Shown: positions 8,232 through 53,280 of the stretch, piece after piece | Numbering within the stretch: the first letter of the stretch is position 1 | Layout of the letters: every line of letters begins with the position of its first letter | UHGV virus genome: UHGV-0176771 | From: a virus | Length of the DNA: 64,000 nucleotides | Strand: one strand, 5' to 3' | Translations under genes and position numbers: made by a program | The notes under the pieces: generated by a model | The model's input: only the letters and a program-made list of their open reading frames with translations | Told to the model about the DNA's origin: nothing | The model's database searches: none

Positions 8232-8250
8232 ACAAATGAAGGATGCTCAT

Positions 8251-8672: not shown

Positions 8673-8693
8673 TTTCAAATGGAGGAAATAGGT

Positions 8694-9020: not shown

Positions 9021-9022
9021 AT

Positions 9023-9250
9023 ATGAAAATTCATTTATTTTGGATTGATAATAATTGGAGGAAAACAGGAGGAACGGCAAATAACTATAATCTTATTATT
9101 GATATGGAAAATAAAGTTTATAAGCAGTTTGTCAATCCTTTTTATGGGTATTATAAAGCGGAGGACATAGAAGTTAAAAGAAAGTCAGATATTGTAGATT
9201 ACATAAAATACTTAAAAGACAATGATTTTAAAGAAGTAGAAAAAATTTAA
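9023..9250 (+). CDS. hypothetical protein (75 aa from ATG 9023)
   Basis: RBS GAGGAGGTGTAGAT then ATG 9023. ORF-track start 8984 overlaps the upstream gene. Confidence 0.5.
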   Translation: MKIHLFWIDNNWRKTGGTANNYNLIIDMENKVYKQFVNPFYGYYKAEDIEVKRKSDIVDYIKYLKDNDFKEVEKI

Positions 9251-9283
9251 AGAACAGACGAAAGCACGATTTTAAGAGGTGAA

Positions 9284-9466
9284 ATGAGTATGAACATAAA
9301 TACCAGGAAGAAACAAAAAACGGACAAAATGTTATTAAGAAATAATGAACGCAAGATGTGTGGATTACCATTACATAGAAAGAAAAGTAAAAAGCGAAGA
9401 TATTTGACTAGGTGCGAAGCAGAAGAAACAATAGGCGCTTTTTTAGATTATTGTAACAGGGATTAG
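9284..9466 (+). CDS. small basic protein (60 aa)
   Basis: ORF track. Lys/Arg-rich (RKKQKTDK...HRKKSKKRRY). RBS AAGAGGTGAAATGAGT then ATG. Confidence 0.45.
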   Translation: MSMNINTRKKQKTDKMLLRNNERKMCGLPLHRKKSKKRRYLTRCEAEETIGAFLDYCNRD

Positions 9467-15707: not shown

Positions 15708-15971
15708 ATGAAAGGATGCTGTAAAGTGCAAGAACTTGAAAAAGAAGATATCCCATTGAGAGAATACGAAAAATTGTATTGTCGGAATGTATATGAATAC
15801 CTTACACGGAATAACAAGCCACAGGAACAGAAATATTATAGAACCGATGACGGAGAGTTATGGGAAATTAGTTGTTTTCACAGAAGAGAATCAAAAGAAT
15901 TTGCAGAACGATTGTCTGCATTAGAATATTTACAAAAGAAAATAGATATTGCAGAAGCGTTGGGATTTTAG
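15708..15971 (+). CDS. hypothetical protein (87 aa)
   Basis: ORF track. Starts 4 nt after the preceding stop. Confidence 0.5.
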   Translation: MKGCCKVQELEKEDIPLREYEKLYCRNVYEYLTRNNKPQEQKYYRTDDGELWEISCFHRRESKEFAERLSALEYLQKKIDIAEALGF

Positions 15972-15982
15972 GAGGACATTAT

Positions 15983-16978
15983 ATGTGTTATAAAATTGAA
16001 AAACAAAGAAAAATAGAACAAAAACTTGCAAAAGAATTAAAAGATATTCCTGATTTTATATCAGATTTTTTTGATAGATATAAATCAGCAGCTACAAAGA
16101 GAGTTAATTGGATATATATTAGAGATATGCTTAATTGGATGATCAATAATAAATATATAAATAAACAAAGCATAGCAGAAATCAATGAAACAGATATACA
16201 GATTATTACTAGTAATAATCTTATTAAATATCTTAACGAATTAAAAAATGGAATTTTAGGAAGAACAAATTCACTGGATTCTATCAATACAAAGAAGAAT
16301 GTATTCAGTGCTTTTTGGAATTATTTACGACAAAATAAATATGTCGATGATAATGTGATTTCACATATACCTGGCAATCTATATAAATCTGAAAAAAGAT
16401 ATAAAGAAGTAGAAATCCCAACAGATGAGCAAGTGGAAAAATTCTTAGTAAATATCACAGATGGAAATAAAAATGAATTTAATATTATTAGAAATATTGC
16501 CATTGTTCAACTTATAAAAGGAAGTGGTATTCGTTCAGAAGAGCTAATAAATATGGATATTTCCGATTTACATCTATACGAAGAAAAAAGACCGTATATG
16601 ATGATTCTTGGAAAGGGAAATATACAAGAATATGATAAAGTTTATATGTCTGAACAGGCTAGAATGAATATTGAGGAGTATTTGAAAATTAGAACTTTTT
16701 TCGTAACAGAGAGAAAAATTAAAGATAATGCATTGTTTTTATCAAATGAAAATAACAGATTAAGTAAAGGTGCAATTACAGGGTTTTTTAATTTATATTC
16801 GGAAGGTGAAATTTACCCACATATGTTAAGACATTGGGTTGGAAGTAAATTGTATGAAGAAACAAAAGATATTGTTCTTGTTCAAAGACAATTAAGGCAC
16901 AAGAATTTGGAAACAGCAGCAAGATACTATGTACACATGGATGAATCTACTATAGCAGATGCTGTACTCACGCTTTAA
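15983..16978 (+). CDS. Tyrosine recombinase / phage integrase family protein (331 aa)
   Basis: C-terminal catalytic signature HMLRHWVGSKL...LVQRQLRHKNLETAARYYVH (R..H-R-Y). RBS GGAGGACATTAT then ATG 15983. ORF-track start 15872 is an in-frame upstream extension overlapping the previous gene. Confidence 0.8.
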   Translation: MCYKIEKQRKIEQKLAKELKDIPDFISDFFDRYKSAATKRVNWIYIRDMLNWMINNKYINKQSIAEINETDIQIITSNNLIKYLNELKNGILGRTNSLDSINTKKNVFSAFWNYLRQNKYVDDNVISHIPGNLYKSEKRYKEVEIPTDEQVEKFLVNITDGNKNEFNIIRNIAIVQLIKGSGIRSEELINMDISDLHLYEEKRPYMMILGKGNIQEYDKVYMSEQARMNIEEYLKIRTFFVTERKIKDNALFLSNENNRLSKGAITGFFNLYSEGEIYPHMLRHWVGSKLYEETKDIVLVQRQLRHKNLETAARYYVHMDESTIADAVLTL

Positions 16979-24220: not shown

Positions 24221-24847
24221 ATGGACAAGAATAAAATTCTCGAAGATTATATCGGAAATGACATGAAAAAAATTCGTAAGATTTGCAAAAAGATTATTTC
24301 AAAAACAAATGTTCCAGATGGATATCTTGAAGAATATTACGACAAAGCAGTTGATGTTTTAATGGAAAGTATGAATACCTATGATGAATCAAGAAATTGT
24401 AAATTCAGTACATATTTTTATGGAAATCTTGTACGAAGAACAGGAACGTGGATAAGAGATTGTATGAGATTTAAAAGATGCAATCTTGAAACAGATAGTA
24501 AAGGAAAAATTAAAAGAGACGAAGATGGAAATCCGATAGTTATTCCAGATATGTCCATCAATATGCAAATTGATTTAGACGAAGATTATACATTAGAAAA
24601 CAGTATTGCTTCTGATTTTAATCTGGAAGGGGAAATTATAAATAGACTTCACCCCACAACAGATAAAATTGAAATGTATAAGAGCAATTTATCTTATAAG
24701 CAACAAAAGGCGGTCGATCTCATATGCGATGGATACACTCAAGATGAAATTATTGAAGAATTAAACATAACAGAAAGAGAATATAAAGACAATATACTTG
24801 GGACTATGCGTCTTTATGAAAATGTAAAAGTGTTGTTGTGCGAATAA
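24221..24847 (+). CDS. Sigma-70-family sigma factor-like protein (208 aa)
   Basis: KFSTYFYGNLVRRTGTWIRD (region 2-like) and QQKAVDLICDGYTQDEIIEELNITEREYKDNILGTMRLYENVK (region 4 HTH-like). Confidence 0.55.
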   Translation: MDKNKILEDYIGNDMKKIRKICKKIISKTNVPDGYLEEYYDKAVDVLMESMNTYDESRNCKFSTYFYGNLVRRTGTWIRDCMRFKRCNLETDSKGKIKRDEDGNPIVIPDMSINMQIDLDEDYTLENSIASDFNLEGEIINRLHPTTDKIEMYKSNLSYKQQKAVDLICDGYTQDEIIEELNITEREYKDNILGTMRLYENVKVLLCE

Positions 24848-24867
24848 AAAATTGGAGGAATATAATC

Positions 24868-26331
24868 ATGGCAAAGAAAATTAGAAAAAAGACATTATCG
24901 CTAGATTCCTATTTAGAGAAGATTGTGGAAGAAGATATTAGTGATAATCAGGACGTTCAAAGACTGTTTTGTTGGGAAAATGGAATGGTGAATGAGTTAA
25001 TCAAAACTGTATTAACTGATGATTATATTCCACCAATTATCTTAGGAGAAGAAGATTTGGACGAAGACGTTGTGCAGCAATACATTGTTGATGGAATGCA
25101 AAGAAGTTCTGCGTTGGTTAAATTTAAGCATGAAAACTATAAAATTACAGCTACTTTAGAAGATCCGATTATCCAATATCAGAGAAAAAAGAAAGATGAA
25201 AATAATAAAATCTGTAAAGATGAATACGGAAAAGTTATTTGGGAATCTGTTGAATATGATTTGAGAAGAAAAACATATGAAATGTTACCGCCAGAATTGA
25301 AAAAAATGTTTGATGATTATCAGATTGACATTACAATACATCAGCATTGTACGATGTCACAGATTAGTAAATTGGTGAGAAGATACAACAATCATTTGGG
25401 AATGAATACATCTCAGAAAGCATTTACTTATATTGATTTACATGCAAGAAAAATAAGGACAATATCTGAGAAAAATAAATTCTTTAAAAATTGTATGTCT
25501 TGTTCCGGTAAGCAGCAATCGAAAGGTATTAGAGAAAGACTTGTATGTGAATCTGTCATGACAACGTTTTTCTTTGATAACTGGAAAAGTGCAATAAAGA
25601 ACATGAGCAAATATCTAAATGAGAACGCAACGGAAGAACACTTTGATACTGTAAATGAATATTTTAGCAGGATTGAATCTGTGTGCAAAGATAATTTCAC
25701 AGAAGTGTTTGTGCCAAAAAATGTTATTGTTTGGATCCCTGTGTTTAAAGAGTTTGCTAAATTTGGATTAGATGATATTAAGTTTAAGGATTTTGTAGAA
25801 GAATTTGAAAAGTCTTTATATAAAAAAGATGTAAATGGAGTAACATTTGACAAATTAAATGAGGATCGACATACAAAAGGCAAGGCTATTTTAAAAGAGA
25901 AAATTAACATCTTAACTGCTCTCATGAAAGAGTATTTACATATTAAAGAAGATGAAGAAAGTCTTGTCAAAGTGGGAGAGAATAATGTAATAGATAATGC
26001 TTCTTCAGACCAGAACGCTCTTGAATTTATCAAAGAAAATGTTAAAGAAGATGTGATTGATGAAGACATCGAATTATATAAAATTCAGTTAGATGACTGG
26101 ACAGTAGAGGTTGATAACTCATCGAAACTTCTTGAACCTGAAAACATGAATTCTTTACTTGCTGTTGTTGCGTACAGCTTTGAAACAAACATAGATTTAG
26201 AAATTCCGGAGTGGATGGTAAGTTTCTTTAACAGAAATTCTACATATATTAAAGATCAAAAAGAAAATTATACATACATGGTAAATGATATTGGTGAATT
26301 TTTAAGGAACAAGTATGAACTTGTAGGATAA
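24868..26331 (+). CDS. DUF262 (ParB/Srx-fold; GmrSD N-terminal-type) domain protein (487 aa)
   Basis: QQYIVDGMQRSSALVKF matches the DUF262 DGQQR motif. RBS ATTGGAGGAATATAATC then ATG 24868. ORF-track start 24838 overlaps the sigma-like gene. Confidence 0.6.
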   Translation: MAKKIRKKTLSLDSYLEKIVEEDISDNQDVQRLFCWENGMVNELIKTVLTDDYIPPIILGEEDLDEDVVQQYIVDGMQRSSALVKFKHENYKITATLEDPIIQYQRKKKDENNKICKDEYGKVIWESVEYDLRRKTYEMLPPELKKMFDDYQIDITIHQHCTMSQISKLVRRYNNHLGMNTSQKAFTYIDLHARKIRTISEKNKFFKNCMSCSGKQQSKGIRERLVCESVMTTFFFDNWKSAIKNMSKYLNENATEEHFDTVNEYFSRIESVCKDNFTEVFVPKNVIVWIPVFKEFAKFGLDDIKFKDFVEEFEKSLYKKDVNGVTFDKLNEDRHTKGKAILKEKINILTALMKEYLHIKEDEESLVKVGENNVIDNASSDQNALEFIKENVKEDVIDEDIELYKIQLDDWTVEVDNSSKLLEPENMNSLLAVVAYSFETNIDLEIPEWMVSFFNRNSTYIKDQKENYTYMVNDIGEFLRNKYELVG

Positions 26332-27141: not shown

Positions 27142-27906
27142 ATGTGTGAATTTAAAAGTGGGATTATTTTTAAGAATAGGGTGGAACTTGCACCATTAGG
27201 GAATGAAAGTCATTCAAGTTTACTTGAAAACTTGGGTGTAGAAGATAATGAATTTAATGCTTCTAAGAAATTTGTGAGAGCAGAATTAATTCCGCCAGAG
27301 AGATATGTTATCACTTCTGACATTTCAAAGTGGACTTATAAAGTCGATCAGGATATTGTGCCAGAATGGTATAGTAACGATCCAGAGAGATATGAAGAAG
27401 AATTTAGAGAATCCGTTAAAGATTTTATGAACAAGCACTTTAAAGAGGAATTTGGATACTATTGGACAAACATTCAAATGGATGGAAAGATATATCATTT
27501 TATGTATGGAGTTCTTACGAATATGACTTTCGGCAGCAACAATAATTATGGAGAGTCTTTAGTAAGAAAATATCTTAAAGAGTGTAAACTTGCAAAAGAT
27601 ATTAAAGAAAAATATGGAAATAGTATTGTTCCATTTGAAAATAACTTGCTTAGTATGTATGGATTTAATGATTATGGCGTTGTAAAAGACGATGTATTAT
27701 CTATTCCGACATTTGATTTATTTAGAAAATGTGGTGAAAAACTTCCATTAATCAATTATGCATACTGGCTGTCAACTCCAAACCAGACACCGTCAAGAAA
27801 AGATTCTTCCTATGTTCAGGTTGTCTACGGTTGTGGGGACGTGCATTACAACGATTGCTACTGGAACGTTCTTGGAGTTCGTCCGTTTTTTATCACCGAA
27901 TCTTAA
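27142..27906 (+). CDS. DGR target (variable) protein 1 (254 aa) with a C-terminal C-type-lectin-like variable region
   Basis: C-terminus ...SSYVQVVYGCGDVHYNDCYWNVLGVRPFFITES is encoded by VR1. RBS AAGGGAAAGGAGAAATAAATT then ATG. Confidence 0.8.
   Translation: MCEFKSGIIFKNRVELAPLGNESHSSLLENLGVEDNEFNASKKFVRAELIPPERYVITSDISKWTYKVDQDIVPEWYSNDPERYEEEFRESVKDFMNKHFKEEFGYYWTNIQMDGKIYHFMYGVLTNMTFGSNNNYGESLVRKYLKECKLAKDIKEKYGNSIVPFENNLLSMYGFNDYGVVKDDVLSIPTFDLFRKCGEKLPLINYAYWLSTPNQTPSRKDSSYVQVVYGCGDVHYNDCYWNVLGVRPFFITES
27806..27888 (+). repeat. DGR variable repeat 1 (VR1)
   Basis: Aligns with the TR at 28396-28478. All 11 differences are at TR adenines (A to G/T/C). 3' end GGAGTTCGTCCGTTTT versus TR GGAGTTCGTCCGTTCT (IMH versus IMH*-like). 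Confidence 0.8.
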
Positions 27907-28045
27907 ATCTGTTTATCTTGTCGATAACGTTTTGTGGAGACGAAGACAGAACAATGCGCAAGCGTTGTTCGTAAGTCTCCGAAGAACCAAACTCAGCAAG
28001 ATTGGAGTGATTTATGTGGAAGTTATTACAAAAGCTATCGACTTA

Positions 28046-28369
28046 ATGCAATATACATATTCTGTAACAGCGAATAAAAAGAGATATCCAGCAAAATATA
28101 AAATGCTTATAGAAAGAATTCAGAATGAATGTATGAATATATATGATTTTCTGATGAGTGCAAATAGAATACAAATAAATGCAGAAAAACAGAAAAGATT
28201 AGATTTACAAACTAGATCTATTTCCTCATGTGATAAATTGTCCTGCTATGTTGAATTATCAATGAATCTTAGCCTTATAGGATCAGATACAGTTGAATAT
28301 TGGCAGAAAAAGATATGCGATGTTAAGTACATGACAATAGCATGGAGAAGCAAAGATAAAACAAGATAA
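28046..28369 (+). CDS. Avd-like accessory variability determinant candidate (108 aa; alternative GTG start 28007)
   Basis: Small basic helical ORF between VR and TR (MQYTYSVTANKKRYPAKYKMLIERIQNECMNIYDFLMSANRIQ...YMTIAWRSKDKTR). Position and size fit an Avd four-helix bundle. ORF-track 27758 start is an N-terminal extension through the VR. Confidence 0.5.
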   Translation: MQYTYSVTANKKRYPAKYKMLIERIQNECMNIYDFLMSANRIQINAEKQKRLDLQTRSISSCDKLSCYVELSMNLSLIGSDTVEYWQKKICDVKYMTIAWRSKDKTR

Positions 28370-28393
28370 AATTTTTTTGGTTGTTTGCTATAC

Positions 28394-28480
28394 GACTTCC
28401 TATGTTCAGATTGTCAACAGTAATGGGAACATGAATTACAACGATTGCAACTGGAACGATCATGGAGTTCGTCCGTTCTG
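28394..28480 (+). repeat. DGR template repeat (TR)
   Basis: CTTCCTATGTTCAGATTGTCAACAGTAATGGGAACATGAATTACAACGATTGCAACTGGAACGATCATGGAGTTCGTCCGTTCTGG. Adenine-rich (AAC/AAT codons) where the VRs vary. Confidence 0.8.
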
Positions 28481-28552
28481 GATCGGAAGACGAAATAGAG
28501 TAAGAGAAACACTGAAATTAGAGTCCCGATATCAAAAGAGCAAACAACCTTT

Positions 28553-28572
28553 CCTGTCTAATCAAAGACAGG
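28553..28572 (+). other. Spacer hairpin between TR and RT (CCTGTCT-AATCAA-AGACAGG)
   Basis: Perfect 7-bp stem in the TR-RT spacer, where DGR RNAs carry structure needed for cDNA priming. Confidence 0.4.
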
Positions 28573-28596
28573 ATAAATACAAAGGTAAAATATATC

Positions 28597-29634
28597 ATGA
28601 TAAAAGATAACACAGATTTTGATAAGATTATTGATTTTGAAAATTTATATAAAGCATACAGAGATTCAAAAAGTGGCAAAGGTTTTACGAAAAGCAGAAT
28701 TAAATTTGAATTATCTGCTCTTGACGGAATTTATCAAATTAAGAAACTTTTAGAATCAAAGCAATATGAAGTAGATAGATATAATAGATTTAAAGTATAT
28801 GAACCGAAAGAGAGAATTATAGAAGCAGGAAGTTTTAAAGACAAAATTGTGCAGCACAGTTTATGTGATAATGTGCTTCTTCCTATTTTAAGTAATGAAT
28901 TTATATACACGAATTATGCCGGACAAATAGGAAAAGGAACATTGTTTGGTTTGGATTGTCTGAAATATCAAATTTATTTAGCATATCAGAAATACGGATA
29001 TGATTGTTGGATTATTAAAGGTGATATTAAAAAATTTTTCTATAATATTGATCATAATATTCTGAAAGATATTGTTCCATATTTTATATCTAATCCAGAT
29101 ACATACTGGTTATGTGAAAAATTTATTGATAGTACAAGTGAGAAAGGGTTGCCTCTTGGAAATCAAGTTAGTCAGGTATTTGCTTTATTATATTTGTCTG
29201 GTTTTGATCATTTTATAACTGGAGAGTTAGGTGTCAAATATTATGGAAGATATATGGATGATTTCTATTTAATTGTAGAATCAAAACAATATGCAAAATA
29301 TTGTTTGTGTGCAATAGAAGATTTTGTAAACACTCTAAATCTTGAATTGAACGGTAAAACTCAGATTATACCTTTTAAAAATGGAATTAAATTTTGTGGT
29401 TTTCATACACATGTCACAAAAGATGGAAAGGTAATTAGAAAACTTACAAATGAAAAGAAGAGAAAATCGAAAAAGAAATATCGAAAAATGGCAAAGATGG
29501 TAAAAGAGAATAAGTTATCAAAAGAAAAATTCATAGAATCTTATGAGTCTTGGAAGAATCATATTTCACATGGTAATTGTATCAAATTTACATATGAGAT
29601 GGATAAGATGATAGATGAGATATTATCAAGTTAA
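28597..29634 (+). CDS. DGR-type reverse transcriptase (345 aa)
   Basis: RT motifs RIIEAGSFKDKIVQHSL, GDIKKFFYNIDHN, YGRYMDDFYLI (YMDD) and the DGR-specific LGNQVSQ (SQ motif). Confidence 0.9.
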   Translation: MIKDNTDFDKIIDFENLYKAYRDSKSGKGFTKSRIKFELSALDGIYQIKKLLESKQYEVDRYNRFKVYEPKERIIEAGSFKDKIVQHSLCDNVLLPILSNEFIYTNYAGQIGKGTLFGLDCLKYQIYLAYQKYGYDCWIIKGDIKKFFYNIDHNILKDIVPYFISNPDTYWLCEKFIDSTSEKGLPLGNQVSQVFALLYLSGFDHFITGELGVKYYGRYMDDFYLIVESKQYAKYCLCAIEDFVNTLNLELNGKTQIIPFKNGIKFCGFHTHVTKDGKVIRKLTNEKKRKSKKKYRKMAKMVKENKLSKEKFIESYESWKNHISHGNCIKFTYEMDKMIDEILSS

Positions 29635-29732
29635 AATCTCGATTTCATTCGGAATTTGATACAATATATAGTTGTTTGTAACTTGTTTAAATACCATATA
29701 TAGCATATAAAAATTTGAAGGAGAATAGATGA

Positions 29733-30377
29733 ATGAGAAAAATTAAGAAAATTGTAACTATAGTAACAATGTGTTGCTTTATTACAGCTCTATCTGGATG
29801 TGCAATGTTGGAATCGGAATTTAACGATATCAAAGGTTCATTGATTGGAAATGGATATCGTATTGATACATATGATAATTATGGTTCAAAGGTACTAGAA
29901 ACATCAGGAGACAAAATCAATATTTCTGGGAACAAAGTGGAGACTACAAGTTACAGTAGTGATGGATCTACATCCACTAATTATGATTTATCATCTGTAA
30001 TTACAATTACAATTGACGGTAAAGAAATTGAAAGTTGCGGAGATACTTGTATTTTTGTACAGGATGGACTAAATAGCGAAGTTGATTTTACCGAAGAGAG
30101 AATTAAAAGTATGACAGATGGTTCATTTTCTGATAATACATTCGTTGCTGAGTTTGTAAATAAATACAAAAATATGTTTGGGAAGTCGCGGGTGGTCGTT
30201 ATTAAATCGCAGCTTGGACAACCTATTACAGCGTATTCCGGGGAAGAAGTATATTGGGAAATCCCGGATGATCTACCTAAAATGACAAAGCTAATGATTG
30301 ACGGAAAAGCATTGTATATACATAGAGCTAATTTTCAGATTATTGACAAAGCATTATTAGATCAAAAAGGAGAATAA
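29733..30377 (+). CDS. lipoprotein (214 aa)
   Basis: Signal peptide MRKIKKIVTIVTMCCFITALSGC with lipobox LSGC. RBS GAAGGAGAATAGATGA then ATG. Confidence 0.6.
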   Translation: MRKIKKIVTIVTMCCFITALSGCAMLESEFNDIKGSLIGNGYRIDTYDNYGSKVLETSGDKINISGNKVETTSYSSDGSTSTNYDLSSVITITIDGKEIESCGDTCIFVQDGLNSEVDFTEERIKSMTDGSFSDNTFVAEFVNKYKNMFGKSRVVVIKSQLGQPITAYSGEEVYWEIPDDLPKMTKLMIDGKALYIHRANFQIIDKALLDQKGE

Positions 30378-35912: not shown

Positions 35913-36452
35913 ATGAAGGTTTTAGTTGTAGTAGATATGCAAAACGATTTTGTGAGTGGAAATTTGGGAACAAAAGAAGCAGTTGCAATTGTTCCGGATG
36001 TAAAGAAAAAAATTGAAGAATATTACAATAACGGTGATGTAGTTTTCTTCACAAAAGACACACATTTGGATGGTTATTTAGATACTCAGGAAGGTAAAAA
36101 ATTGCCTGTAGAGCATTGTGTTATTGGAACAAACGGATGGGAAATTGTAGACGAATTAAAATCTTACGCAAAACACGTAATTAATAAAAATAGATTTGGA
36201 AGTAATTACCTTGCAGAATGTATCCATGGCGGTTTTGCTAGTAATGATTATGATAGCGTTGAACTTGTTGGTGTATGTACTGATATTTGTGTAGTGTCGA
36301 ATGCTCTATTAATTAAAGCATGGGTGCCAGAAATGGAAATTACAGTCGATGCGTCGTGCTGCGCTGGTGTCACTCCTGAAAAGCATAGAGCTGCGTTAGA
36401 AGTGATGAAATCTTGTCAAATTAATGTGATTGGAGAGAAAACTTATGATTAA
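35913..36452 (+). CDS. Isochorismatase-family cysteine hydrolase, nicotinamidase (PncA)-like (179 aa)
   Basis: MKVLVVVDMQNDFVSG...KDTHLDGY...VELVGVCTDICVVSNA matches the PncA/isochorismatase catalytic Asp-Lys-Cys pattern. RBS GAAGGAGAATAGGGAAT then ATG 35913. Confidence 0.7.
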   Translation: MKVLVVVDMQNDFVSGNLGTKEAVAIVPDVKKKIEEYYNNGDVVFFTKDTHLDGYLDTQEGKKLPVEHCVIGTNGWEIVDELKSYAKHVINKNRFGSNYLAECIHGGFASNDYDSVELVGVCTDICVVSNALLIKAWVPEMEITVDASCCAGVTPEKHRAALEVMKSCQINVIGEKTYD

Positions 36453-37260
36453 AATTAACGGAGAGGTGTTAAATACAAAGAAGTTTCCAGACGGAACACT
36501 TTTGATTAAAGAGGATGTTCCTTATAATTTTGAAAATTATAGAGAGGCAACTATTACATGGTTGTTTGAAAATAATGAAGAATTAGTGACGCTAATTTAT
36601 ATTGTAAAGCATCTTAATTCTCATGGTATTGCAAGTCTGTATCTGAATATGCCATATATCCCAAACAGTCGTCAAGACCGTGTTAAAACAACTGAAGACG
36701 TATTTACATTAAAGTATTTTGCGGAAGTTATTAATTGGTTGGATTTTGATTCTGTAACAGTATTAGATCCACATTCATCTGTAAGCGAAGCTCTTATTGA
36801 TAGAGTTTTAATTAAATATCCAGACAAATATGTGTGGAAAGCGATTGAAAGTGAATACATTGGTGGCACAAATAATCTTACAATGTTCTATCCGGACGAA
36901 GGAGCTATGAAACGTTATTCTACAATGTTTGATCTTCCTTATGCTTTTGGTATTAAAAAGCGCGATTGGGAAACAGGGGAGATTAAAGGACTAGATGTTT
37001 CAGGCATGACAAATCTGATTAAAGGAAGAAAAATTTTAATTGTAGATGATATTTCAAGTCGTGGCGGAACATTTTATCATTCAGCTATTAAGTTAAAGGA
37101 ACTGGGAGCAAAGGAGATTTATCTATATGTATCTCATTGTGAAAATACAATCCTCGAAGGAGAAGTATTGAGTAGTGGATTGATTGACAGAGTGTTCACG
37201 ACAAATAGTATTTTTACAAAAGAACATGAGAAAGTAGAGGTATTTGAATATGACGAATAA
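36445..37260 (+). CDS. Ribose-phosphate pyrophosphokinase (Prs)-like protein; candidate ADP-ribose pyrophosphate synthetase (Adps) of an NAD+ reconstitution pathway (271 aa)
   Basis: PRPP-synthetase fold with PRPP/ribose-phosphate binding loop ILIVDDISSRGGTF. Overlaps the NAMPT-like gene by 11 nt. RBS GGAGAGAAAACTT then ATG 36445. Confidence 0.7.
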   Translation: MIKINGEVLNTKKFPDGTLLIKEDVPYNFENYREATITWLFENNEELVTLIYIVKHLNSHGIASLYLNMPYIPNSRQDRVKTTEDVFTLKYFAEVINWLDFDSVTVLDPHSSVSEALIDRVLIKYPDKYVWKAIESEYIGGTNNLTMFYPDEGAMKRYSTMFDLPYAFGIKKRDWETGEIKGLDVSGMTNLIKGRKILIVDDISSRGGTFYHSAIKLKELGAKEIYLYVSHCENTILEGEVLSSGLIDRVFTTNSIFTKEHEKVEVFEYDE

Positions 37261-38734
37261 GACAAATCCAATGTTATTAATTGACTTTTATAAAGCGGTT
37301 CATGCAGAAATGCTACCTGAAAATATTACAAAATCAGTTTCCTATTTTACTCCTAGAATGAGTCGTGTAAAACGATGGGATAAAGTAGTAATGTTTGGAT
37401 TACAGGGGTTTATTAAAACGTATCTGATTGATTATTTCAATGAAGAATTTTTTGACAAACCTTTTGAAGAAATTATTTATGAATATAAAAGAATTATGGA
37501 TGCATCACTTGGTAAGGATGCGTATAAAATTGACAAGATTGAAAGTCTACATAAATTGGGATATTTGCCAATTGAGATTGTTGCATTGCCAGAAGGTACA
37601 ATTGTTCCAATGCATGTGCCTATGTTTGGTATTACAAATACACATAAAGATTTTGCATGGCTGCCTCAGAGTTTAGAAAGTCTTATCTCGGCAGAAATGT
37701 GGCATCCAATGTTAGCAGCAACAGTAGGAATGACCTATCGTGGCATCGTTAATCACTATTATGGTCTAACTTGTGATGACTATATTCCAAGATCAAAAGC
37801 TCTTGGTGCCTTTGACTTCCGGGGAGAAGAGTGTTTGGAATCAGCGGTAAAAGCAGGCGCTGGGTGGTGTTTATCATTTTTGAATACAGCAACCGTTCCA
37901 ACTATTCCTTATCTTGAAAAGAATTATTTTTGTGATTGTACAAAAGAACCTGTTGCATATGGAAGTCCTAGTACAGAACATTCTGTAATGTGCAGTAATT
38001 ATGCAGTAGATGGAGACGAGATTACATTATTAAGAAGATTACTTACTGAAATCTATCCAAACACAAGTTTTTCAGCAGTTCTTGACTCTTATGATTATTG
38101 GAATATCATCGATAATATTCTTCCTCAATTAAAAACAGAAATCATGAATCATAACGGATGCATGTTGATGCGTGGAGATTCTGGAGATTGTGTAGAAGTT
38201 GTAACAAAAACTGTATTTAAATTATGGGAAGAATTTGGCGGGACAGTTAATAGCAAGGGGTATAAAGTGTTAGATCCACATGTAAAAGCAATTTACGGTG
38301 ACTCAATTACAGTACAGAGATGTGAAAAAATTTACAGAATTCTTATGGAAAATGGATTTGCGTGTTCAAATGTAGCACTAGGAGTTGGATCGTTTTCATT
38401 TCAGTGCATCGAAGAAGATGGAGTATTAAAACCATTTACAAGGGACACTTTTAGTTCTTGTATTAAAGCAACATATTGTGAGATTGATGGAAAAGCTACT
38501 CCAATTTTTAAAAATCCTAAGGACGGTGGTTTTAAGAAATCACAGAAAGGATGCTGCAGAGTATATACACGATGTGATGGAAGTATTTATTACGAGGATG
38601 GGCTTACATGGAAACAGGCTATTGATTATGAAAAACGTGGAAATATGTTAATTCCAGTCTTTAAAGATGGAGAATTATTAAAAGAACAATCGTTAAAAGA
38701 AATTAGAGATAGACTACATGGAGGAGAATTTTAA
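37250..38734 (+). CDS. Nicotinamide phosphoribosyltransferase (NAMPT/NadV)-like protein; candidate nicotinamide ADP-ribose transferase (Namat) (494 aa)
   Basis: N-terminus NPMLLIDFYKAVHAEMLPENITKSVSYFTPR...VMFGLQ parallels NAMPT ([29 protein letters not shown]...YGLQ). Type II PRTase size. Confidence 0.75.
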   Translation: MTNKTNPMLLIDFYKAVHAEMLPENITKSVSYFTPRMSRVKRWDKVVMFGLQGFIKTYLIDYFNEEFFDKPFEEIIYEYKRIMDASLGKDAYKIDKIESLHKLGYLPIEIVALPEGTIVPMHVPMFGITNTHKDFAWLPQSLESLISAEMWHPMLAATVGMTYRGIVNHYYGLTCDDYIPRSKALGAFDFRGEECLESAVKAGAGWCLSFLNTATVPTIPYLEKNYFCDCTKEPVAYGSPSTEHSVMCSNYAVDGDEITLLRRLLTEIYPNTSFSAVLDSYDYWNIIDNILPQLKTEIMNHNGCMLMRGDSGDCVEVVTKTVFKLWEEFGGTVNSKGYKVLDPHVKAIYGDSITVQRCEKIYRILMENGFACSNVALGVGSFSFQCIEEDGVLKPFTRDTFSSCIKATYCEIDGKATPIFKNPKDGGFKKSQKGCCRVYTRCDGSIYYEDGLTWKQAIDYEKRGNMLIPVFKDGELLKEQSLKEIRDRLHGGEF

Positions 38735-39486
38735 TGTTTAATGCAAATGAAATTAAAACTGAAATTATTGAATGGATCCAGAACTTCTTTAAAGAGAACG
38801 GGAGTGGTTGTAAAGCAGTTGTTGGTATTTCAGGAGGGAAGGATTCGACGATTGTTGCTGCACTCTGCGTTGAAGCTCTAGGAAAAGAAAGAGTGCTTGG
38901 AGTCCTAATGCCAAACGGTAAACAAAAAGATATTGATGTTGCAAAGAAGGTGGTTGATCATCTTGGAATTGAAAATATCGAGGTGAATATTTTCAATGCA
39001 GTAAGAGATATTAAACATGAAGTGAAGTCTGAATTGGACGATCACTGGAGCAGACAGTCTTCTATCAATCTGCCGGCGCGAATTAGAATGGCTACATTAT
39101 ATGCTGTGTCTCAGACTGTAAATGGAAGAGTTGCGAATACATGTAATTTATCTGAAGATTGGATTGGATATAGTACAAGGTGGGGAGATAGTGTTGGTGA
39201 TTTCAGTCCATTGTCTAATCTGACTGTTACGGAAGTTAAGGAAGTCGGATATGCACTTGGACTTCCGAAAGAGTTCATTGAGAAAATTCCATCAGATGGT
39301 CTTTGTGATAAAACAGATGAAGATAATTTAGGATTTACATATGAAGTTCTCGATAAATATATCAGAACAGGCGTAATTGATGACAAACAATTAAAGAAAA
39401 AAATTGACCAGATGCACGAAAAGAATTTGTTTAAATTGCAAATGATGCCGTCATTTAGTTTTAAACACGAGAGTGATAAAAGTTGA
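38734..39486 (+). CDS. nadE: NH3-dependent NAD+ synthetase (NadE) (250 aa)
   Basis: PP-loop motif VVGISGGKDSTIVAAL (SGGxDS). NadE-type length. Start overlaps the NAMPT-like stop (TAATG). Confidence 0.8.
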   Translation: MFNANEIKTEIIEWIQNFFKENGSGCKAVVGISGGKDSTIVAALCVEALGKERVLGVLMPNGKQKDIDVAKKVVDHLGIENIEVNIFNAVRDIKHEVKSELDDHWSRQSSINLPARIRMATLYAVSQTVNGRVANTCNLSEDWIGYSTRWGDSVGDFSPLSNLTVTEVKEVGYALGLPKEFIEKIPSDGLCDKTDEDNLGFTYEVLDKYIRTGVIDDKQLKKKIDQMHEKNLFKLQMMPSFSFKHESDKS

Positions 39487-39517
39487 TAACAAAAATAAAA
39501 TAATGGAGAGATTAAAT

Positions 39518-40000
39518 ATGAGAACAGTATATATTGCAGACGATGGAAAACAGTTTGAAGATGAGTATGAATGCGAACATCATGAATTTGAGTTGAAACA
39601 TCCACATCTTCAAACAATTGAAGCGTACAATAAAGACGGAGAAAAAATGACAGATCTCTTGGATGAAGATACATATAATAATTGTGAAAAAATTATTCTT
39701 CATTCAGAAGAAGAGTTATCTGATTTACAATATGCCGCAGACTATTTAGGATTTTATTCATACAATGACATTACCGAAATCGGGGAATGGATTTTTGATT
39801 ATGAAACAGAGAATTTTAGTAAAAACAAAAAGTCTACTTTTGTACAGGAGTTATCTGACAAATATGTGGAGATATTAAATGAATGTAGATCAATAAATTA
39901 TCATGAATATGCGGATAATACACTATTAAAATTGTTATCTGATTTAGGATATGCAGATGTTGTTAAAGAATATAAACATATTCCAAAAGTATATTTTTAG
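39518..40000 (+). CDS. hypothetical protein (160 aa from ATG 39518)
   Basis: RBS ATGGAGAGATTAAAT then ATG 39518. ORF track starts at 39473. Confidence 0.5.
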   Translation: MRTVYIADDGKQFEDEYECEHHEFELKHPHLQTIEAYNKDGEKMTDLLDEDTYNNCEKIILHSEEELSDLQYAADYLGFYSYNDITEIGEWIFDYETENFSKNKKSTFVQELSDKYVEILNECRSINYHEYADNTLLKLLSDLGYADVVKEYKHIPKVYF

Positions 40001-40035
40001 TATGAATCTGTGATTTCAATCGAAGGGGAATTAAA

Positions 40036-40377
40036 ATGAACGAGATTATTTTAAGAAAAAGGGAACCAAACATAATCAATGTAGAGTATTGCTGTGAGAT
40101 TACAGAATATTTAAATGAAAATGTTAGATATAATTTTAGGGATGTACATCCATATTCGTTCTGTTATATATATGATTCAAGAAATTTTTGTAATAACACA
40201 GTTGTAATACGTATGCCAGGATCAACAATTGGATGTATTAGATTTAATGATGAAAATGTAATTACAGAATGTTGTATTTATGATGATGTAATGTCTAAGA
40301 GTAGATGTTTTTCCGAAGATATAAATGAGCGGCTGAAGCGATTTGTTGGAAGTGTATTAAAATTTCCGGAAGAATAG
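40036..40377 (+). CDS. hypothetical Cys-rich protein (113 aa)
   Basis: ORF track. RBS GAAGGGGAATTAAA then ATG. Confidence 0.5.
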   Translation: MNEIILRKREPNIINVEYCCEITEYLNENVRYNFRDVHPYSFCYIYDSRNFCNNTVVIRMPGSTIGCIRFNDENVITECCIYDDVMSKSRCFSEDINERLKRFVGSVLKFPEE

Positions 40378-40387
40378 AGGTGATAGA

Positions 40388-40987
40388 GTGAATTATTATA
40401 TTAGTGATCTACATTTATTCCATAAAAATGTGACGAATGAAGGTTCTAATTTTGACAATAGACCGTTTGATACAATGGAAGAAATGCATAAAGTGATTAG
40501 AGAAAATTGGAACTCAAAAGTGACGAATGCAGATCATGTCTATATTTTAGGAGATCTGGCATGGAAAGAAAATGAAGATGCTATTGCATTTGTAAGTACA
40601 TTACGCGGAAACAAACATCTGATTCTTGGAAACCATGATAAAGCGACAGATCAAAGGTATAAACAGTTATTTGTAGAAATAGCAAATTATAAAGAAGCGA
40701 AAGATATGATTGACGGAAAAGAGTATCATGTCGTAATGTCTCACTTTCCATTGGCCTTTTGGAATCATCAGCATCATTACAGAAGAGATGGAAAAGAGCA
40801 TAAAGTGTGGTCTGTTCACTTATATGGGCACGTACATAATTCTGTAGAAGAAGGTTATTATCAAGAATTTATCAGAAAACTAAACATGGAATACGGAATT
40901 AAGTGTATTGCAAAAAATGTAGGATGTATGTTATGGAATTATACTCCAGTAACATTAAAAGAAATTTTAGATAACAAAGGAGAATAA
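40388..40987 (+). CDS. Calcineurin-like metallophosphoesterase (199 aa, GTG start)
   Basis: YYISDLHLFH, ILGDLAWK, GNHD and MSHFP match the metallophosphoesterase motifs D-x-H, GD, GNHD/E. RBS ATAGAGGTGATAGA then GTG. Confidence 0.65.
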   Translation: MNYYISDLHLFHKNVTNEGSNFDNRPFDTMEEMHKVIRENWNSKVTNADHVYILGDLAWKENEDAIAFVSTLRGNKHLILGNHDKATDQRYKQLFVEIANYKEAKDMIDGKEYHVVMSHFPLAFWNHQHHYRRDGKEHKVWSVHLYGHVHNSVEEGYYQEFIRKLNMEYGIKCIAKNVGCMLWNYTPVTLKEILDNKGE

Positions 40988-40991
40988 GAAT

Positions 40992-41309
40992 ATGAGAGCA
41001 ATGATTTGTCAGCCGATGCCGGGGAAAACAGATGAAGAGATTGTGAATACAAGAGAAAAGGCAGCGCAGTATCTGTTAGATAGAGGATGTGAAATTGTCG
41101 ATACCTTGTTTACAGATGAATGGTATTCAAAAGAGAAGAACGAACGTGATATTTCAAATAGAGCACTTTTCTTTTTGGCAAAGTCTTTAGAGAAGATGTC
41201 GTTATGTAATATTGCTTATTTCTGCAAAGGTTGGGAAGATTACAGAGGATGTCGTATTGAACATGCTGCAGCATCTGCTTACGGGCTAGATATTATTTAT
41301 GAGGAGTAA
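40992..41309 (+). CDS. Nucleoside 2-deoxyribosyltransferase-like (DUF4406-type) small protein (105 aa)
   Basis: MRAMICQPMPGKTDEEIVNTREKAAQYLLDRGCEIVDT resembles the DUF4406 N-terminus (ISGPMTG...G.EVVNP). Weak call. Confidence 0.4.
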   Translation: MRAMICQPMPGKTDEEIVNTREKAAQYLLDRGCEIVDTLFTDEWYSKEKNERDISNRALFFLAKSLEKMSLCNIAYFCKGWEDYRGCRIEHAAASAYGLDIIYEE

Positions 41310-41314
41310 TTTTA

Positions 41315-41623
41315 ATGGGTAGTTTTGGACTATATGGAATTCAAAATGTAAGTTTTATTGATCTTGAAACTGGAAAGAAGATTAATATAGATAATGCTTC
41401 AGTGTCGATTGAGGATGAAAAAAGAAATTACAATAATAGTAAACTAAATTTCAAGAATATGAATTTAAAGGATAAAACCTTCGTGTGTGAACTTCCTTAT
41501 ATTAATAAGAAGAAATTGTACAATATATTATATGGGATTACAAATAATTACAGACGTTTGCATGGTGGACATGCTTTGAGAGAAGTAACTAGAAGAAGAT
41601 ACATAATGAAAAATAAAAGATAA
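41315..41623 (+). CDS. hypothetical protein (102 aa)
   Basis: ORF track. Starts 6 nt after the previous stop. Confidence 0.45.
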   Translation: MGSFGLYGIQNVSFIDLETGKKINIDNASVSIEDEKRNYNNSKLNFKNMNLKDKTFVCELPYINKKKLYNILYGITNNYRRLHGGHALREVTRRRYIMKNKR

Positions 41624-49830: not shown

Positions 49831-51666
49831 ATGGTAGAAAATAAAGATAAAAAATATAATTCAGATAAACATTGGGAACTTGTAAATTTTTGTGAATTTG
49901 ATAAGTATGCAGCAAAGAGCTACTGTGCAATTCACAATGTAGATGAAAATTTGAATCTTGGTGATATCACAAAGGTCGATGAAACTGAATTAGATGATTT
50001 TAATATGATTTGTGGAGGGTCGCCGTGCCAGGATTTCAGCGTGGCAGGAAAACAAAAGGGGTCTGTATGGACTTGTAAAGATTGTGGACATGAATATAAT
50101 CCATTAACAGTTCATTGGAGTAAAAGAGATTGTTGTCCGAATTGTGGAAGTAAAAATATTGAAAAGACAAGATCTTCTCTCCTTGTAGAATATTTACGAG
50201 TAGTTAGATCAAATAGACCTAATTTTGGAATTTATGAAAATGTAAAGAATATTGTTGGAAAACAGTTTAAAGACACAACATTTAAATTATTTACTGATGA
50301 ATTAGAAGAATATGGATATAACGTATATTGGAAGGTTCTGAATGCTAAAAATTATGGAATTCCACAGAACAGAGAACGTGTGTATCTGTTATTTATTAAA
50401 AAGGATTTGGATAATGGTAAGTTTGAATTTCCAGAGCCTTTTGATAATGGATTAAGATTGAAGGATTTATTGGAAGATGAAGTCGATGAGAAGTTCTATA
50501 TTTCTGATGAGAAAGTTGAAAGATTTATTACAAATTTAAATGACAAAAATTCTTTATTATATGATCCATGCCAAGTGAAAAGAGAAGGAAAGAGCAGAGA
50601 ATATTCTGAATATGCACCAACATTAACTTCGAGAGATTATAAAGATCCAAGATTAGTAAATGAAAATGTTGTAAGACAAGTTGGAAATATTTCCGATTGT
50701 AATGGAGCATGGGACAATCCGCAAGTAGGGAGAGTTTATGATGTAAGTGGTTGCAGCCAAACATTGAATACATGTAGTGGTGGTGGTCATGAACCGAAGG
50801 TTATTACAGGAATTGATAAGTCATATAACAATCCAAAATTCATTGAAACGGCAAATTGTATTACTTCACGAGAAGATCGTGGTATTTCAAATAGGAAGTC
50901 TGAAGGTGCAGCAGTTTTAGAAACTCCAAATATTAGTTATTGTTTGGACTCTAACTATTACAAAGGAACAACAATAGAACAATATATGAATAAACATCGT
51001 AGACAATTGATAGTCGAAAATAATAAAGTTGCAATCAAACAAGCTACTAAACAAGGATATATCGAATGTGAAATTGGTGGTGTTGCAGATTTGTCTTATC
51101 CAGACAGTAAAACTAGAAGAGGCCGAGTGCAGGATAATGGGAATACACGCCCAACCATTACGGCTACAGAAACTTGTATTTGTAGAATTGAACCTAAAGA
51201 AAGATTTTTTAAACAAGCACTTGAAACTTTAAATGAAAATGATTGTAAACCAGGAGATACAATTAACGCATTTAATAAACATGTTGACAAAACTGGATTT
51301 TCTCCAACATTAACTACAAGACCAGAAGGATTTAAAACAGCAATTCTACCTGTTACAGATAATATTAGAATTCGTAAGCTAACGCCGAAGGAGTGCTTTA
51401 GGCTTATGGGATTTTCTGATGAAGATTTTGATTCAGCGCAGAAAGCAGGAATCTCAAACAGTCAATTGTACAAGCAAGCTGGAAATTCAATTGTAGTAGA
51501 TGTTCTTTATTACATATATGTAGAGCTTTATAAAGCTATGCCTTATTTGTTTGATGATCTGAAATTAAGTAGTTTCTTCTCTGGAATTGGCGCTTTTGAG
51601 ATTGCACTTGATAGATTATACAAAGGTATTAATTCCGGAAATTTTATCAATCCACAGACAGAGTAA
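49831..51666 (+). CDS. DNA cytosine-5 methyltransferase, apparently circularly permuted (motif I at the C-terminus), with a zinc-ribbon insertion after motif IV (611 aa)
   Basis: Motifs in order: EFDKYAAKSY (II/III-like), GGSPCQDFSVAGKQKG (IV), inserted WTCKDCGHEY...CCPNCGS, IYENVKN (VI), GIPQNRERVYLLF (VIII), long TRD, LTPKECFRLMGF (IX), LYKQAGNSIVVDV (X), then SSFFSGIGAFEIAL (motif I FxGxG) at the C-terminus. An in-frame TAA lies immediately upstream of the start ATG. Confidence 0.8.
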   Translation: MVENKDKKYNSDKHWELVNFCEFDKYAAKSYCAIHNVDENLNLGDITKVDETELDDFNMICGGSPCQDFSVAGKQKGSVWTCKDCGHEYNPLTVHWSKRDCCPNCGSKNIEKTRSSLLVEYLRVVRSNRPNFGIYENVKNIVGKQFKDTTFKLFTDELEEYGYNVYWKVLNAKNYGIPQNRERVYLLFIKKDLDNGKFEFPEPFDNGLRLKDLLEDEVDEKFYISDEKVERFITNLNDKNSLLYDPCQVKREGKSREYSEYAPTLTSRDYKDPRLVNENVVRQVGNISDCNGAWDNPQVGRVYDVSGCSQTLNTCSGGGHEPKVITGIDKSYNNPKFIETANCITSREDRGISNRKSEGAAVLETPNISYCLDSNYYKGTTIEQYMNKHRRQLIVENNKVAIKQATKQGYIECEIGGVADLSYPDSKTRRGRVQDNGNTRPTITATETCICRIEPKERFFKQALETLNENDCKPGDTINAFNKHVDKTGFSPTLTTRPEGFKTAILPVTDNIRIRKLTPKECFRLMGFSDEDFDSAQKAGISNSQLYKQAGNSIVVDVLYYIYVELYKAMPYLFDDLKLSSFFSGIGAFEIALDRLYKGINSGNFINPQTE

Positions 51667-52281: not shown

Positions 52282-53280
52282 TTGAAAAATTATATTCCCC
52301 AAAAGGCAAGTTCGATTGAAGAGTTAATCAAAGATTGTCCCAAAAATCAAGTTATTCTTGATAATCTAATAAGAGCGTGGGCGATTATTAATAGTCCTAA
52401 ATATAAAAAAATATTATGTAGTATTTCAGGTGGATCTGACAGCGATATTATGTTGGATATTGTTTGGAGATGTGATAAAGACAACAAGGTTGATTACGTT
52501 TGGTTTGATACTGGACTTGAATATCAAGCGACAAAAGACCATTTGGAATATCTTGAGAGAAAATATGATATAAAATTTATTCGCAAAAAAGCAATTAAGC
52601 CTATTCCTATTGCTTGTAAAGAACATGGGAAACCATTCATTTCTAAAAATGTTAGTGAATTTATACAAAGATTACAACGACATAATTTTCAATGGGAAGA
52701 TGAATCTTTTGATGTATTAATAAAAAAATATCCTAAGTGTCAATCTGCTCTTGAATGGTGGTGCAATACTAAAGGGGAAAATTCTCAATTTAATATAAAG
52801 AATAAGAAATGGTTGAAAGAATTTATGATTAAAAATCCACCAGTATTTAAGATTTCAAACAAGTGTTGTACTTACGCAAAAAAGAAAGTTGCGAATAAAA
52901 TATTAAAAGAAAATAAATATGATTTGAATATCATAGGTGTGAGAAAATCTGAAGGTGGTGCTAGAGCAACAGCATACAAAAATTGTTTTGATGATACTGA
53001 TGGAGACTATGATAATTACAGACCTATTTTTTGGTACAGAGATCAAGATAAGATTGATTATGAAAATACATATGGAATTATACATAGCAATTGTTATACA
53101 GAATATGGATTAAAACGTACGGGTTGTGTTGGATGTCCATATGGAAGAAATTTCGAGGATGAATTAGAAGTAGTAAAACAATATGAGCCAAAACTATACA
53201 AGGCTGTTTGTAATATATTTAAGGATTCTTATGAGTATACACGACAATACAAAGAGTTTATAGAAAATATGAAAGGTTAG
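52282..53280 (+). CDS. PP-loop ATP pyrophosphatase superfamily protein, PAPS-reductase-like (332 aa, TTG start)
   Basis: PP-loop ILCSISGGSDSDIMLDIV (SGGxDS). C-terminal cysteine cluster KCC...CVGCPYG as in Fe-S APS/PAPS reductase or DndC/QueC-type enzymes. Confidence 0.65.
   Translation: MKNYIPQKASSIEELIKDCPKNQVILDNLIRAWAIINSPKYKKILCSISGGSDSDIMLDIVWRCDKDNKVDYVWFDTGLEYQATKDHLEYLERKYDIKFIRKKAIKPIPIACKEHGKPFISKNVSEFIQRLQRHNFQWEDESFDVLIKKYPKCQSALEWWCNTKGENSQFNIKNKKWLKEFMIKNPPVFKISNKCCTYAKKKVANKILKENKYDLNIIGVRKSEGGARATAYKNCFDDTDGDYDNYRPIFWYRDQDKIDYENTYGIIHSNCYTEYGLKRTGCVGCPYGRNFEDELEVVKQYEPKLYKAVCNIFKDSYEYTRQYKEFIENMKG

Follow-up and report, generated by a model that had tools for sequence, protein, structure and literature searches.

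A gut-phage gene cluster combining an Adps/Namat-type pair with a nicotinamidase and an NAD+ synthetase: a candidate deamidated branch of NARP1

Among the pathways by which phages are known to restore NAD+, the one closest to the locus treated here is NAD+ reconstitution pathway 1 (NARP1), formed by Adps (ADP-ribose pyrophosphate synthetase) and Namat (nicotinamide ADP-ribose transferase) and described for SPbetaL1, Bas63 and FADO (Osterman et al., bioRxiv 10.1101/2024.02.11.579819), with Namat structures available as 9w5x and 9w5w (PMC12774641). An extended form, NARP1-AP, comprises Adps, the Macro phosphatase Adpp, which is an ADP-ribose (ADPR)-1''-phosphatase, and Namat (bioRxiv 10.64898/2026.01.28.702374). 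NARP2 consists of Nampt and Nmnat (KVP40) and NARP3 of PnuC and NadR (PMC13464706). Here we analyse four adjoining genes in a 64,000-nucleotide stretch of the virus genome UHGV-0176771 (the window, by which the whole stretch is meant): they encode a PncA-type nicotinamidase, an Adps-clade homologue of phosphoribosyl pyrophosphate (PRPP) synthetase (Prs), a Namat-family transferase and the NAD+ synthetase NadE (Table 1). The reading we favour, and hold to be more likely than not, is that this cluster constitutes a deamidated branch of NARP1, which would rebuild NAD+ from ADPR and nicotinamide by way of nicotinate and nicotinic acid adenine dinucleotide (NaAD).

With NARP1 the window shares an adjoining, overlapping gene pair, one gene for a Prs homologue of the Adps clade and the other for a Namat-family transferase, the latter retaining the fold, the catalytic His, the ribose- and phosphate-binding residues, the clamp Arg and the TRD triplet of Namat. 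It differs from NARP1 in that the transferase has Ala for Asp215, Ser for Ala242 and a nine-residue hairpin in its clamp, in that the pair has PncA and NadE on its two sides, partners found in none of the 90 canonical loci sampled, and in that the predicted product of the transferase would be NaAD, not NAD+. NARP1-AP offers a second parallel, being likewise a NARP1 operon extended by accessory enzymes, and many close relatives of the window carry a Macro gene resembling Adpp. In contrast to NARP1-AP, positions 27001-48000 of the window gave no Macro-domain match with a custom Macro hidden Markov model (HMM), and the accessory enzymes PncA and NadE act on the pyridine half of the molecule instead of on ADPR-1''-phosphate.

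A first-pass annotation, made from the letters of the DNA alone, had delimited four open reading frames (ORFs) on the + strand, and all four were found again at these coordinates by an ORF check combined with family searches, whose E-values speak against a chance observation. Read from the sequence, the overlap of 11 nt between Adps and Namat and that of 1 nt (TAATG) between Namat and NadE agree with this annotation, and the PRPP-loop string it had quoted, ILIVDDISSRGGTF, lies at Adps residues 197-210; the junction between PncA and Adps, an 8-nt overlap reading ATGATTAA, was absent from it. A GGAG-type ribosome-binding site precedes the PncA ATG at 35913. No terminator-like site lies between 33000 and 42000, where promoter-like sites are no more numerous than in shuffled sequence, and therefore the four genes lie inside a long same-strand run; the GC content of the window is low (~32%) and nearly all of its genes are on the + strand. 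In a nucleotide search, none of 50,697 phage records matched the cluster. The source phage is known only from metagenomes, its relatives being gut and rumen viral contigs of 80-170 kb in IMG/VR plus two GenBank gut-phage records.

Table 1. Positions of the four clustered genes, of the altered transferase residues and of other elements in the window; steps are those of the proposed pathway
Feature	Position	Strand	Evidence or remark
PncA-type nicotinamidase, 179 aa	35913..36452	+	Pfam PF00857 Isochorismatase E 3.9e-27; predicted step 1
Adps-clade Prs homologue, 271 aa	36445..37260	+	phrog_619 E 1e-67; predicted step 2
Namat-family transferase, A/S type, 494 aa	37250..38734	+	phrog_448 E 1e-157; NF006629 431 bits; predicted step 3
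NadE, NH3-dependent NAD+ synthetase, 250 aa	38734..39486	+	TIGR00552 E 2e-54; predicted step 4
Ala214 codon GCA, in place of amide-binding Asp	37889..37891	+	HMMER alignment to 9w5x
Ser241 codon, in place of nicotinamide-pocket A242	37970..37972	+	alignment to 9w5x; co-varies with 214
9-residue insertion I387-P395 in adenine selectivity-clamp motif	38408..38434	+	gap versus 9w5x; GSFSFQC[IEEDGVLKP]FTRD
Tyrosine integrase	15872..16978		
GmrSD_N-like protein	24838..26331		below Pfam cut-off
Variable repeat, 89 nt	27806-27894		3' end of ORF 27142..27906
Template repeat	28396-28484		84% identical to variable repeat; mismatches at template adenines
Reverse transcriptase ORF	28597..29634		RVT_1 E 4.5e-14
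DUF5052 ORF	29733..30377		after reverse transcriptase ORF
C5 cytosine methylase fused to zinc ribbon	49831..51666		
PAPS-reductase-domain protein	52282..53280		

The Prs-like protein scores under every NCBIfam Prs cut-off, and phrog_619 is annotated as 'ribose-phosphate pyrophosphokinase'. It is 43% identical to the experimentally validated SPbetaL1 Adps (174 bits, E 3e-58) and reaches at most 60 bits against solved Prs, and hence groups, as had been proposed for it, with Adps and not with housekeeping Prs. Its gene adjoins the namat homologue directly and overlaps both neighbouring genes; within the Adps clade, a Namat homologue is immediately adjacent in 97%. Most likely, then, the protein belongs to the Adps clade, and its predicted reaction is the conversion of ADPR and ATP to ADPR pyrophosphate (ADPR-PP) and AMP.

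For the transferase, the best sequence match is to the SPbetaL1 Namat crystal sequences 9w5x/9w5w (395 bits), followed by Haemophilus ducreyi NadV (313 bits) and by the Nampt proteins of Xanthomonas (Xcc) and human (~155-163 bits); taken together, the two middle proteins are 43-44% identical to the validated SPbetaL1 Adps and Namat. An AlphaFold2 model of the transferase (predicted local distance difference test, pLDDT, 94.5) superposes best on the Namat structures, with template-modelling (TM) scores of 0.92-0.94, and both comparisons thus uphold the assignment to Namat over Nampt. The core is preserved in D12, Y14, F188, R191, H244 (the catalytic His), R308, D310, R398 and D399, including the F188/Y14 stacking pair and the TRD triplet, and the clamp-loop Arg39 (in MSRVKR) aligns with the stacking R40 of SPbetaL1. 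The first-pass annotation had called the pair NARP1-type, which stands as far as membership of the Adps and Namat families is concerned; it does not stand for the transferase as a canonical nicotinamide-using Namat, on account of Ala214.

In the crystal structure of Namat the pocket comprises F189, R192, D215, A242, R306, D13' and Y15', with D215 hydrogen-bonding the nicotinamide amide (PMC12774641). This residue corresponds to D219 of human NAMPT and D203 of the Xcc enzyme; a Ser stands in its place in nicotinate phosphoribosyltransferases, and the negative charge of the Asp is believed to give nicotinamide the advantage over nicotinate (PMC4442680, PMC10907753). When it is replaced by Ala (D215A), SPbetaL1 Namat is left with some activity, which is ~8-fold lower. 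The two substitutions in the window protein (Table 1) lie in parts of the alignment to 9w5x that have no gaps around Ala214 or Ser241, and they are not peculiar to this protein. We searched 1.84 billion cluster representatives (50%-identity clusters) with phmmer and used the best 150 relatives: the amide-reading Asp is missing in 51 of these 150 closest Namat-family clusters, about one third, and the two pocket positions co-vary, with 95 D/A, 31 A/S and 16 S/S pairs beside five other combinations (148 fully scored). Canonical (D/E-type) representatives carry Asp in 97 of 98 cases and Glu in the other. The columns that best separate the canonical from the Asp-less (A/S) type are 214, 241, 306, 212, 186, 238 and 184, position 214 being the most discriminating, and they cluster in sequence around the Namat pocket residues F189, D215, A242 and R306. 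Together with the co-varying pair, this distribution argues that the pyridine pocket has been remodelled as a unit, and by the same sequence comparison the transferase appears not as a canonical Namat but as a member of a large sister type without the amide-recognising Asp.

The adenine selectivity clamp requires separate consideration. The Namat clamp motif is GS-X-phi-X-phi-X-phi-TRD in which positions 3 and 7 are aromatic; the window protein keeps the aromatic at position 3 and the TRD, has Cys386 at position 7 (aligning with SPbetaL1 Y396) and then continues into the insertion, modelled as a beta hairpin (pLDDT ~91, AlphaFold2). Since the A/S proteins of Phass-1 and Clostridium are free of the insertion and have an intact clamp, GSYTYQY(N/V)TRD, it is specific to the phage lineage of the window, and the possibility that it is a hallmark of the PncA/NadE-linked type was rejected. 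As an observation on the family at large, many Namat-family representatives (P0053, P0081, P0111 and others) have lengths of 550-1100 aa, and their matches are split into two or three stretches, some of them breaking inside the clamp motif (G[IV]GS[FY]CV...) and others near residue 320; the matches to several Bacillus phage genes likewise fall into two pieces; inteins or inserted domains are a possible cause.

The closest solved relatives of PncA are nicotinamidases/pyrazinamidases (1ilw, 3s2s, 3o90, 3pl1), and both the catalytic triad (D8, K92, C126) and the Asp/His/His metal site (D49, H51, H68) are complete; among 141 module homologues, K92 is conserved in 137 and the other five residues do not vary at all. 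The earlier suggestion of a different cysteine hydrolase is therefore unlikely. In nicotinamidase structures, the metal binds the free pyridine nitrogen, and for this reason the conserved site points to free nicotinamide as the probable substrate, not nicotinamide mononucleotide (NMN) or NAD+. NadE exceeds the TIGR00552 cut-off of 63.65 with 184 bits (PF02540 E 1.4e-54) and is a single PP-loop synthetase domain with no glutaminase domain; its P-loop, SGGKDS at residues 33-38, is invariant in 121 module homologues. The known substrate of NadE is NaAD.

How firmly the four genes belong together was followed in 243 further loci (244 with the window), counting neighbours within 5 kb. These loci were drawn from close IMG/VR relatives, a diverse IMG/VR set collected by profile, 80 genome loci from GTDB, five contigs with divergent representatives, and MT835544, Phass-1 and SPbetaL1 from GenBank; their six-frame ORFs were scanned with HMMs built from the window proteins, and GTDB was scanned with a 6-sequence alignment. 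Around transferases of the A/S type (n=153) we find PncA in 142, NadE in 124 and Adps in 146 loci, whereas around the canonical type (n=90) Adps occurs in 74 and PncA and NadE in none. The picture is the same for loci whose sequence extends 3 kb or more to each side (PncA in 128/131 and NadE in 110/131 of the A/S type, 0/70 of the canonical type) and for clusters at 70% identity (12/17 and 13/17, respectively, versus 0/43 for either partner); A/S loci that are short of one partner are mostly short contigs. Gene order varies: PncA-Adps-Namat-NadE in the window as well as in contig L162, which is of the S/S type, Adps-x-x-Namat-Macro-NadE-PncA in MT835544, PncA-Adps-Namat-139 aa-NadE in Phass-1 (a recoded gut phage, Namat 31% identical) and Namat-139 aa-NadE-Adps in contig L161. 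The set of four is retained over deep divergence and through rearrangement, and the broader NAD+ module that the first reading had suspected is borne out, in that the genes keep together in gut phages and Clostridia alike although their order changes.

Two further observations belong to these loci. In two distant lineages, Phass-1 (5576..5995) and L161 (2399..2818), an ORF of 139 aa lies between the Namat-like gene and NadE; a direct scan gave no Pfam match for that of Phass-1 and none is on record for that of L161. A Macro-domain gene, detected with the custom HMM, is present in 39 A/S loci, often between the Namat-like gene and NadE, and in MT835544.1 it is found at about 7690..8178.

Gene content, family placement, pocket substitutions and the tight association with PncA and NadE are direct observations, and they would be joined by a pathway of four steps. 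PncA would convert nicotinamide to nicotinate and NH3; the Adps homologue would convert ADPR and ATP to ADPR-PP and AMP; the Asp-less Namat-family transferase would join nicotinate and ADPR-PP to NaAD, releasing pyrophosphate (PPi); and NadE would form NAD+ from NaAD, ATP and NH3, for which the ammonia released by PncA could be reused. Adps and the transferase would thereby fill the slot that PncB and NadD occupy in the Preiss-Handler route, and because they would replace these two enzymes, no adenylyltransferase should be expected to travel with the module; no adenylyltransferase domain was found by Pfam in 44 window ORFs (small ORFs not covered), nor in those A/S loci that have Pfam calls (L159-L163, L166). 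It had earlier been remarked that a true PncA would consume nicotinamide. The conflict with a Namat in need of it resolves if the transferase uses nicotinate, and the consumption of nicotinamide is probably not a contradiction but the point of the pathway. A plausible rationale for the detour is that hosts with an active nicotinamidase would soon convert or lose the nicotinamide that an NADase sets free, and the nicotinate route would then be the more dependable one.

Several points weigh against this reading. Both the use of nicotinate by a Namat-family enzyme and the formation of NaAD from ADPR-PP and nicotinate are predictions drawn from sequence and gene context, and the substrates of the second and third steps, like the anti-defence role in the phage, are what we infer. 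The hairpin interrupts the clamp, so that ADPR-PP binding can be claimed with less confidence for this phage lineage than for the proteins of Clostridium. Deamidation followed by re-amidation costs the phage extra ATP. The A/S proteins may share one or few ancestors, so that the association counts are not independent events, and Fisher p-values overstate the evidence because of this phylogenetic non-independence; a crude neighbour-joining tree with midpoint rooting gave 4 pure A/S clades and left undecided whether there were one or several origins. The A/S gene of L163 (7287..8780 of a Logan SRR10386367 contig) is without Adps, PncA and NadE within ~5-7 kb, and L160, also A/S, is without NadE in its 2.7 kb of sequence. 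The anti-defence role rests on analogy, and the NrtR-linked chromosomal operon described below suggests a housekeeping origin in ADPR recycling. As a side remark on L163, the genes near its transferase include an adenylosuccinate synthetase and RimK-like genes.

The module is not restricted to phages. Clostridia chromosomes account for about 45 of the 50 A/S-type loci in GTDB, and one locus comes from a metagenome-assembled genome (MAG) of Nanoarchaeia; the carriers among the Clostridia include C. intestinale, C. beijerinckii, C. lundense, C. manihotivorum, Desnuesiella, Oscillospiraceae and Ruminococcus. C. intestinale and ~40 other Clostridia have a chromosomal adps-pncA-namat(A/S) core, next to which nadE is found in roughly half of these genomes. 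The operon of C. intestinale DSM 6191 (L166, 6639..11129) comprises five genes, Adps-PncA-Namat(A/S)-NadE-NrtR, and is flanked by ordinary genes, a TetR regulator/ferredoxin gene on one side and a pseudouridine synthase on the other; its NrtR has a Nudix domain and the NrtR winged helix (Pfam). The metagenomic contig L159 shows the order NrtR-Adps-PncA-Namat-NadE beside a chemotaxis receptor gene. NrtR repressors respond to, and are released by, ADP-ribose (PMC2330246). The Clostridium A/S proteins keep the full adenine-clamp signature GSYTYQYNTRD, which argues that the ribosyl donor of the bacterial enzymes would still be ADPR-PP. By comparison, 32 Asp-type genome loci, mainly of Bacteroidota, have neither PncA nor NadE. 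Taking phages and bacteria together, we regard it as marginally more probable than its opposite that the A/S transferase is a Namat-family enzyme making NaAD from nicotinate and ADPR-PP, and that it belongs to a four-enzyme ADPR-recycling operon of Clostridia, NrtR-linked in C. intestinale, which many large gut phages have captured. If this is true, the captured operon would let phages rebuild NAD+ where nicotinamide is quickly deamidated or lost.

The same chromosomal operon, sitting among ordinary genes and with its own NrtR in C. intestinale, is also what gives weight to the alternative that has survived best, namely that the phage carries a copy of a Clostridial housekeeping recycling operon as a general metabolic booster, raising NAD+ in any infection and countering no defence; the original NARP1 study, too, noted possibly housekeeping bacterial copies. 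We consider this unlikely, while granting it a real share of the probability: ADPR is scarce unless NAD+ is cleaved, so that a pathway starting from ADPR fits NADase activity best, and the 39 related A/S loci with a Macro-domain gene hold one of the kind shown to counter the aRES defence. It should also be noted that this alternative concerns the purpose of the cluster and not its chemistry, and it is compatible with the deamidated NARP1 branch proposed above.

A second alternative does touch the chemistry. The cluster could be a PRPP-using look-alike of the Preiss-Handler route, in which the Prs-like protein makes PRPP, the transferase forms nicotinic acid mononucleotide (NaMN) from nicotinate and PRPP, host NadD and phage NadE complete the synthesis and ADPR is no substrate at all. 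The change from Asp to Ala or Ser speaks for nicotinate and is silent on the ribosyl donor; SPbetaL1 Namat retains activity with PRPP in vitro and KVP40 Nampt prefers PRPP; the clamp motif of the window protein is disrupted by the insertion; the NCBIfam family name reads 'nicotinate phosphoribosyltransferase'; and the host certainly has NadD. Against these stand the placement of the Prs-like protein, whose similarity to validated Adps far exceeds that to any Prs and whose scores stay under all Prs cut-offs, the full adenine-clamp signature and clamp Arg of the insertion-free A/S proteins, the lack of NadD with the module in the loci scanned, whereas phage G with its true PncB has NadD, and the link of the chromosomal operon to the ADPR-sensing NrtR, which together leave this alternative improbable. 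More doubtful still is a canonical NARP1 with two independent helpers, Adps and Namat using nicotinamide while PncA and NadE boost the host Preiss-Handler route in parallel: family membership and adjacency do match NARP1, and the partial activity of SPbetaL1 D215A (~8-fold down) means that an Ala enzyme could still use nicotinamide, but PncA would compete for the nicotinamide of Namat, selection for nicotinamide should preserve the Asp as it has in the D/E-type representatives, and neither the restriction of PncA and NadE to the Asp-less type (142/153 and 124/153 versus 0/90) nor the covariation of the second pocket residue would be explained.

Seen as a deamidated NARP1 branch, the cluster has several points in common with Preiss-Handler salvage: the first enzyme is PncA, the last is NadE, NaAD is predicted to be formed before NadE, and the bacterial operons of both are linked to NrtR. 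It departs from that route in having no PncB or NadD among the window ORFs scanned, where an Adps/Namat-type pair stands instead and the only type II phosphoribosyltransferase found is the NAMPT/Namat-family transferase itself, and in that ADPR, and not PRPP and ATP, would supply the ribosyl-adenylate part already assembled. Bacillus phage G (NC_023719.1), a jumbo phage in culture, provides the contrast case; it was considered as a carrier of the same module and rejected, as its PncA and NadE come with a true PncB and NadD. Within 2124..9373 it encodes the full Preiss-Handler set, PncA gp275, the PncB-type nicotinate phosphoribosyltransferase (NAPRT) gp277, NadD gp281 and NadE gp283, and this stretch holds no Adps or Namat, the Namat HMM not matching gp277. 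Also encoded in the stretch are a Nudix hydrolase (gp273) and a KptA-like phosphotransferase (gp280).

NARP2 and NARP3 resemble the cluster in being phage pathways for NAD+ restoration, and NARP2 also uses a NAMPT-family enzyme; they differ from it in their remaining components, as the scanned window ORFs yielded no Nmnat, NadR or PnuC, and the transferase is nearer to Namat than to Nampt/NadV. NARP3 was discarded as a related system, consisting as it does of PnuC and NadR. A further parallel exists in the NrtR-regulated prs-nadV operons of gamma-proteobacteria and Cytophaga (PMC2330246), which likewise combine a Prs paralogue and a NadV-like protein with an ADPR-responsive repressor, as does the C. 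intestinale module. Unlike the latter, the prs-nadV operons listed there contain neither pncA nor nadE, and the Bacteroidota loci of the present sample are Asp-type. C. acetobutylicum carries nrtR-pncA-pncB-nadD-nadE (PMC2330246), and the same paper lists both prs-nadV and pncA-pncB-nadD-nadE operons, and not the present combination.

The preprints on NARP1 and on NARP1-AP/aRES as well as the Namat structure paper make no mention of NadE, PncA or nicotinic acid, and a 2022 survey of viral NAD+ systems gave no match for NadE, PncA, nicotinamidase, NAD synthetase or isochorismatase. Full-text searches gave no description of the four-gene module, many subscription papers having been out of reach, so that an earlier description elsewhere is possible. 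Within the literature searched, neither the module nor the predicted nicotinate:ADPR-PP transferase activity has been described. NARP1 is now defined as a two-enzyme, nicotinamide-dependent system and surveys count any Adps/Namat pair as NARP1. If the proposed pathway is true, different chemistry underlies a sizeable share of what is called 'NARP1' in gut phages and in Clostridia, NaAD is made without NadD by a new enzyme activity, phages have a fourth known route for NAD+ restoration, the NrtR-linked operons of Clostridia receive a function, and a two-residue sequence signature separates the two routes in genomes.

Next to the cluster, the flanking ORFs 39473..41623 and 40388..40987 were examined as members of the module and rejected, being conserved only among the closest relatives. 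The second of these (199 aa) shows metallophosphoesterase-like motifs by eye (DLH, GDL, GNHD, GHVH) and has no Pfam match at E <= 0.01; it is kept mainly in the closer A/S relatives (15 A/S and 2 Asp-type loci) and is probably not part of the module. Elsewhere in the window, phage-type genes include YopX, a sliding clamp, an integrase, a sigma factor and a C5 methylase, besides a region (27142..30377) that looks like a diversity-generating retroelement, with the repeats and the reverse transcriptase listed in Table 1. The integrase, GmrSD_N-like, methylase and PAPS-reductase genes point to a large gut phage, temperate or plasmid-like, that has DNA-modification functions.

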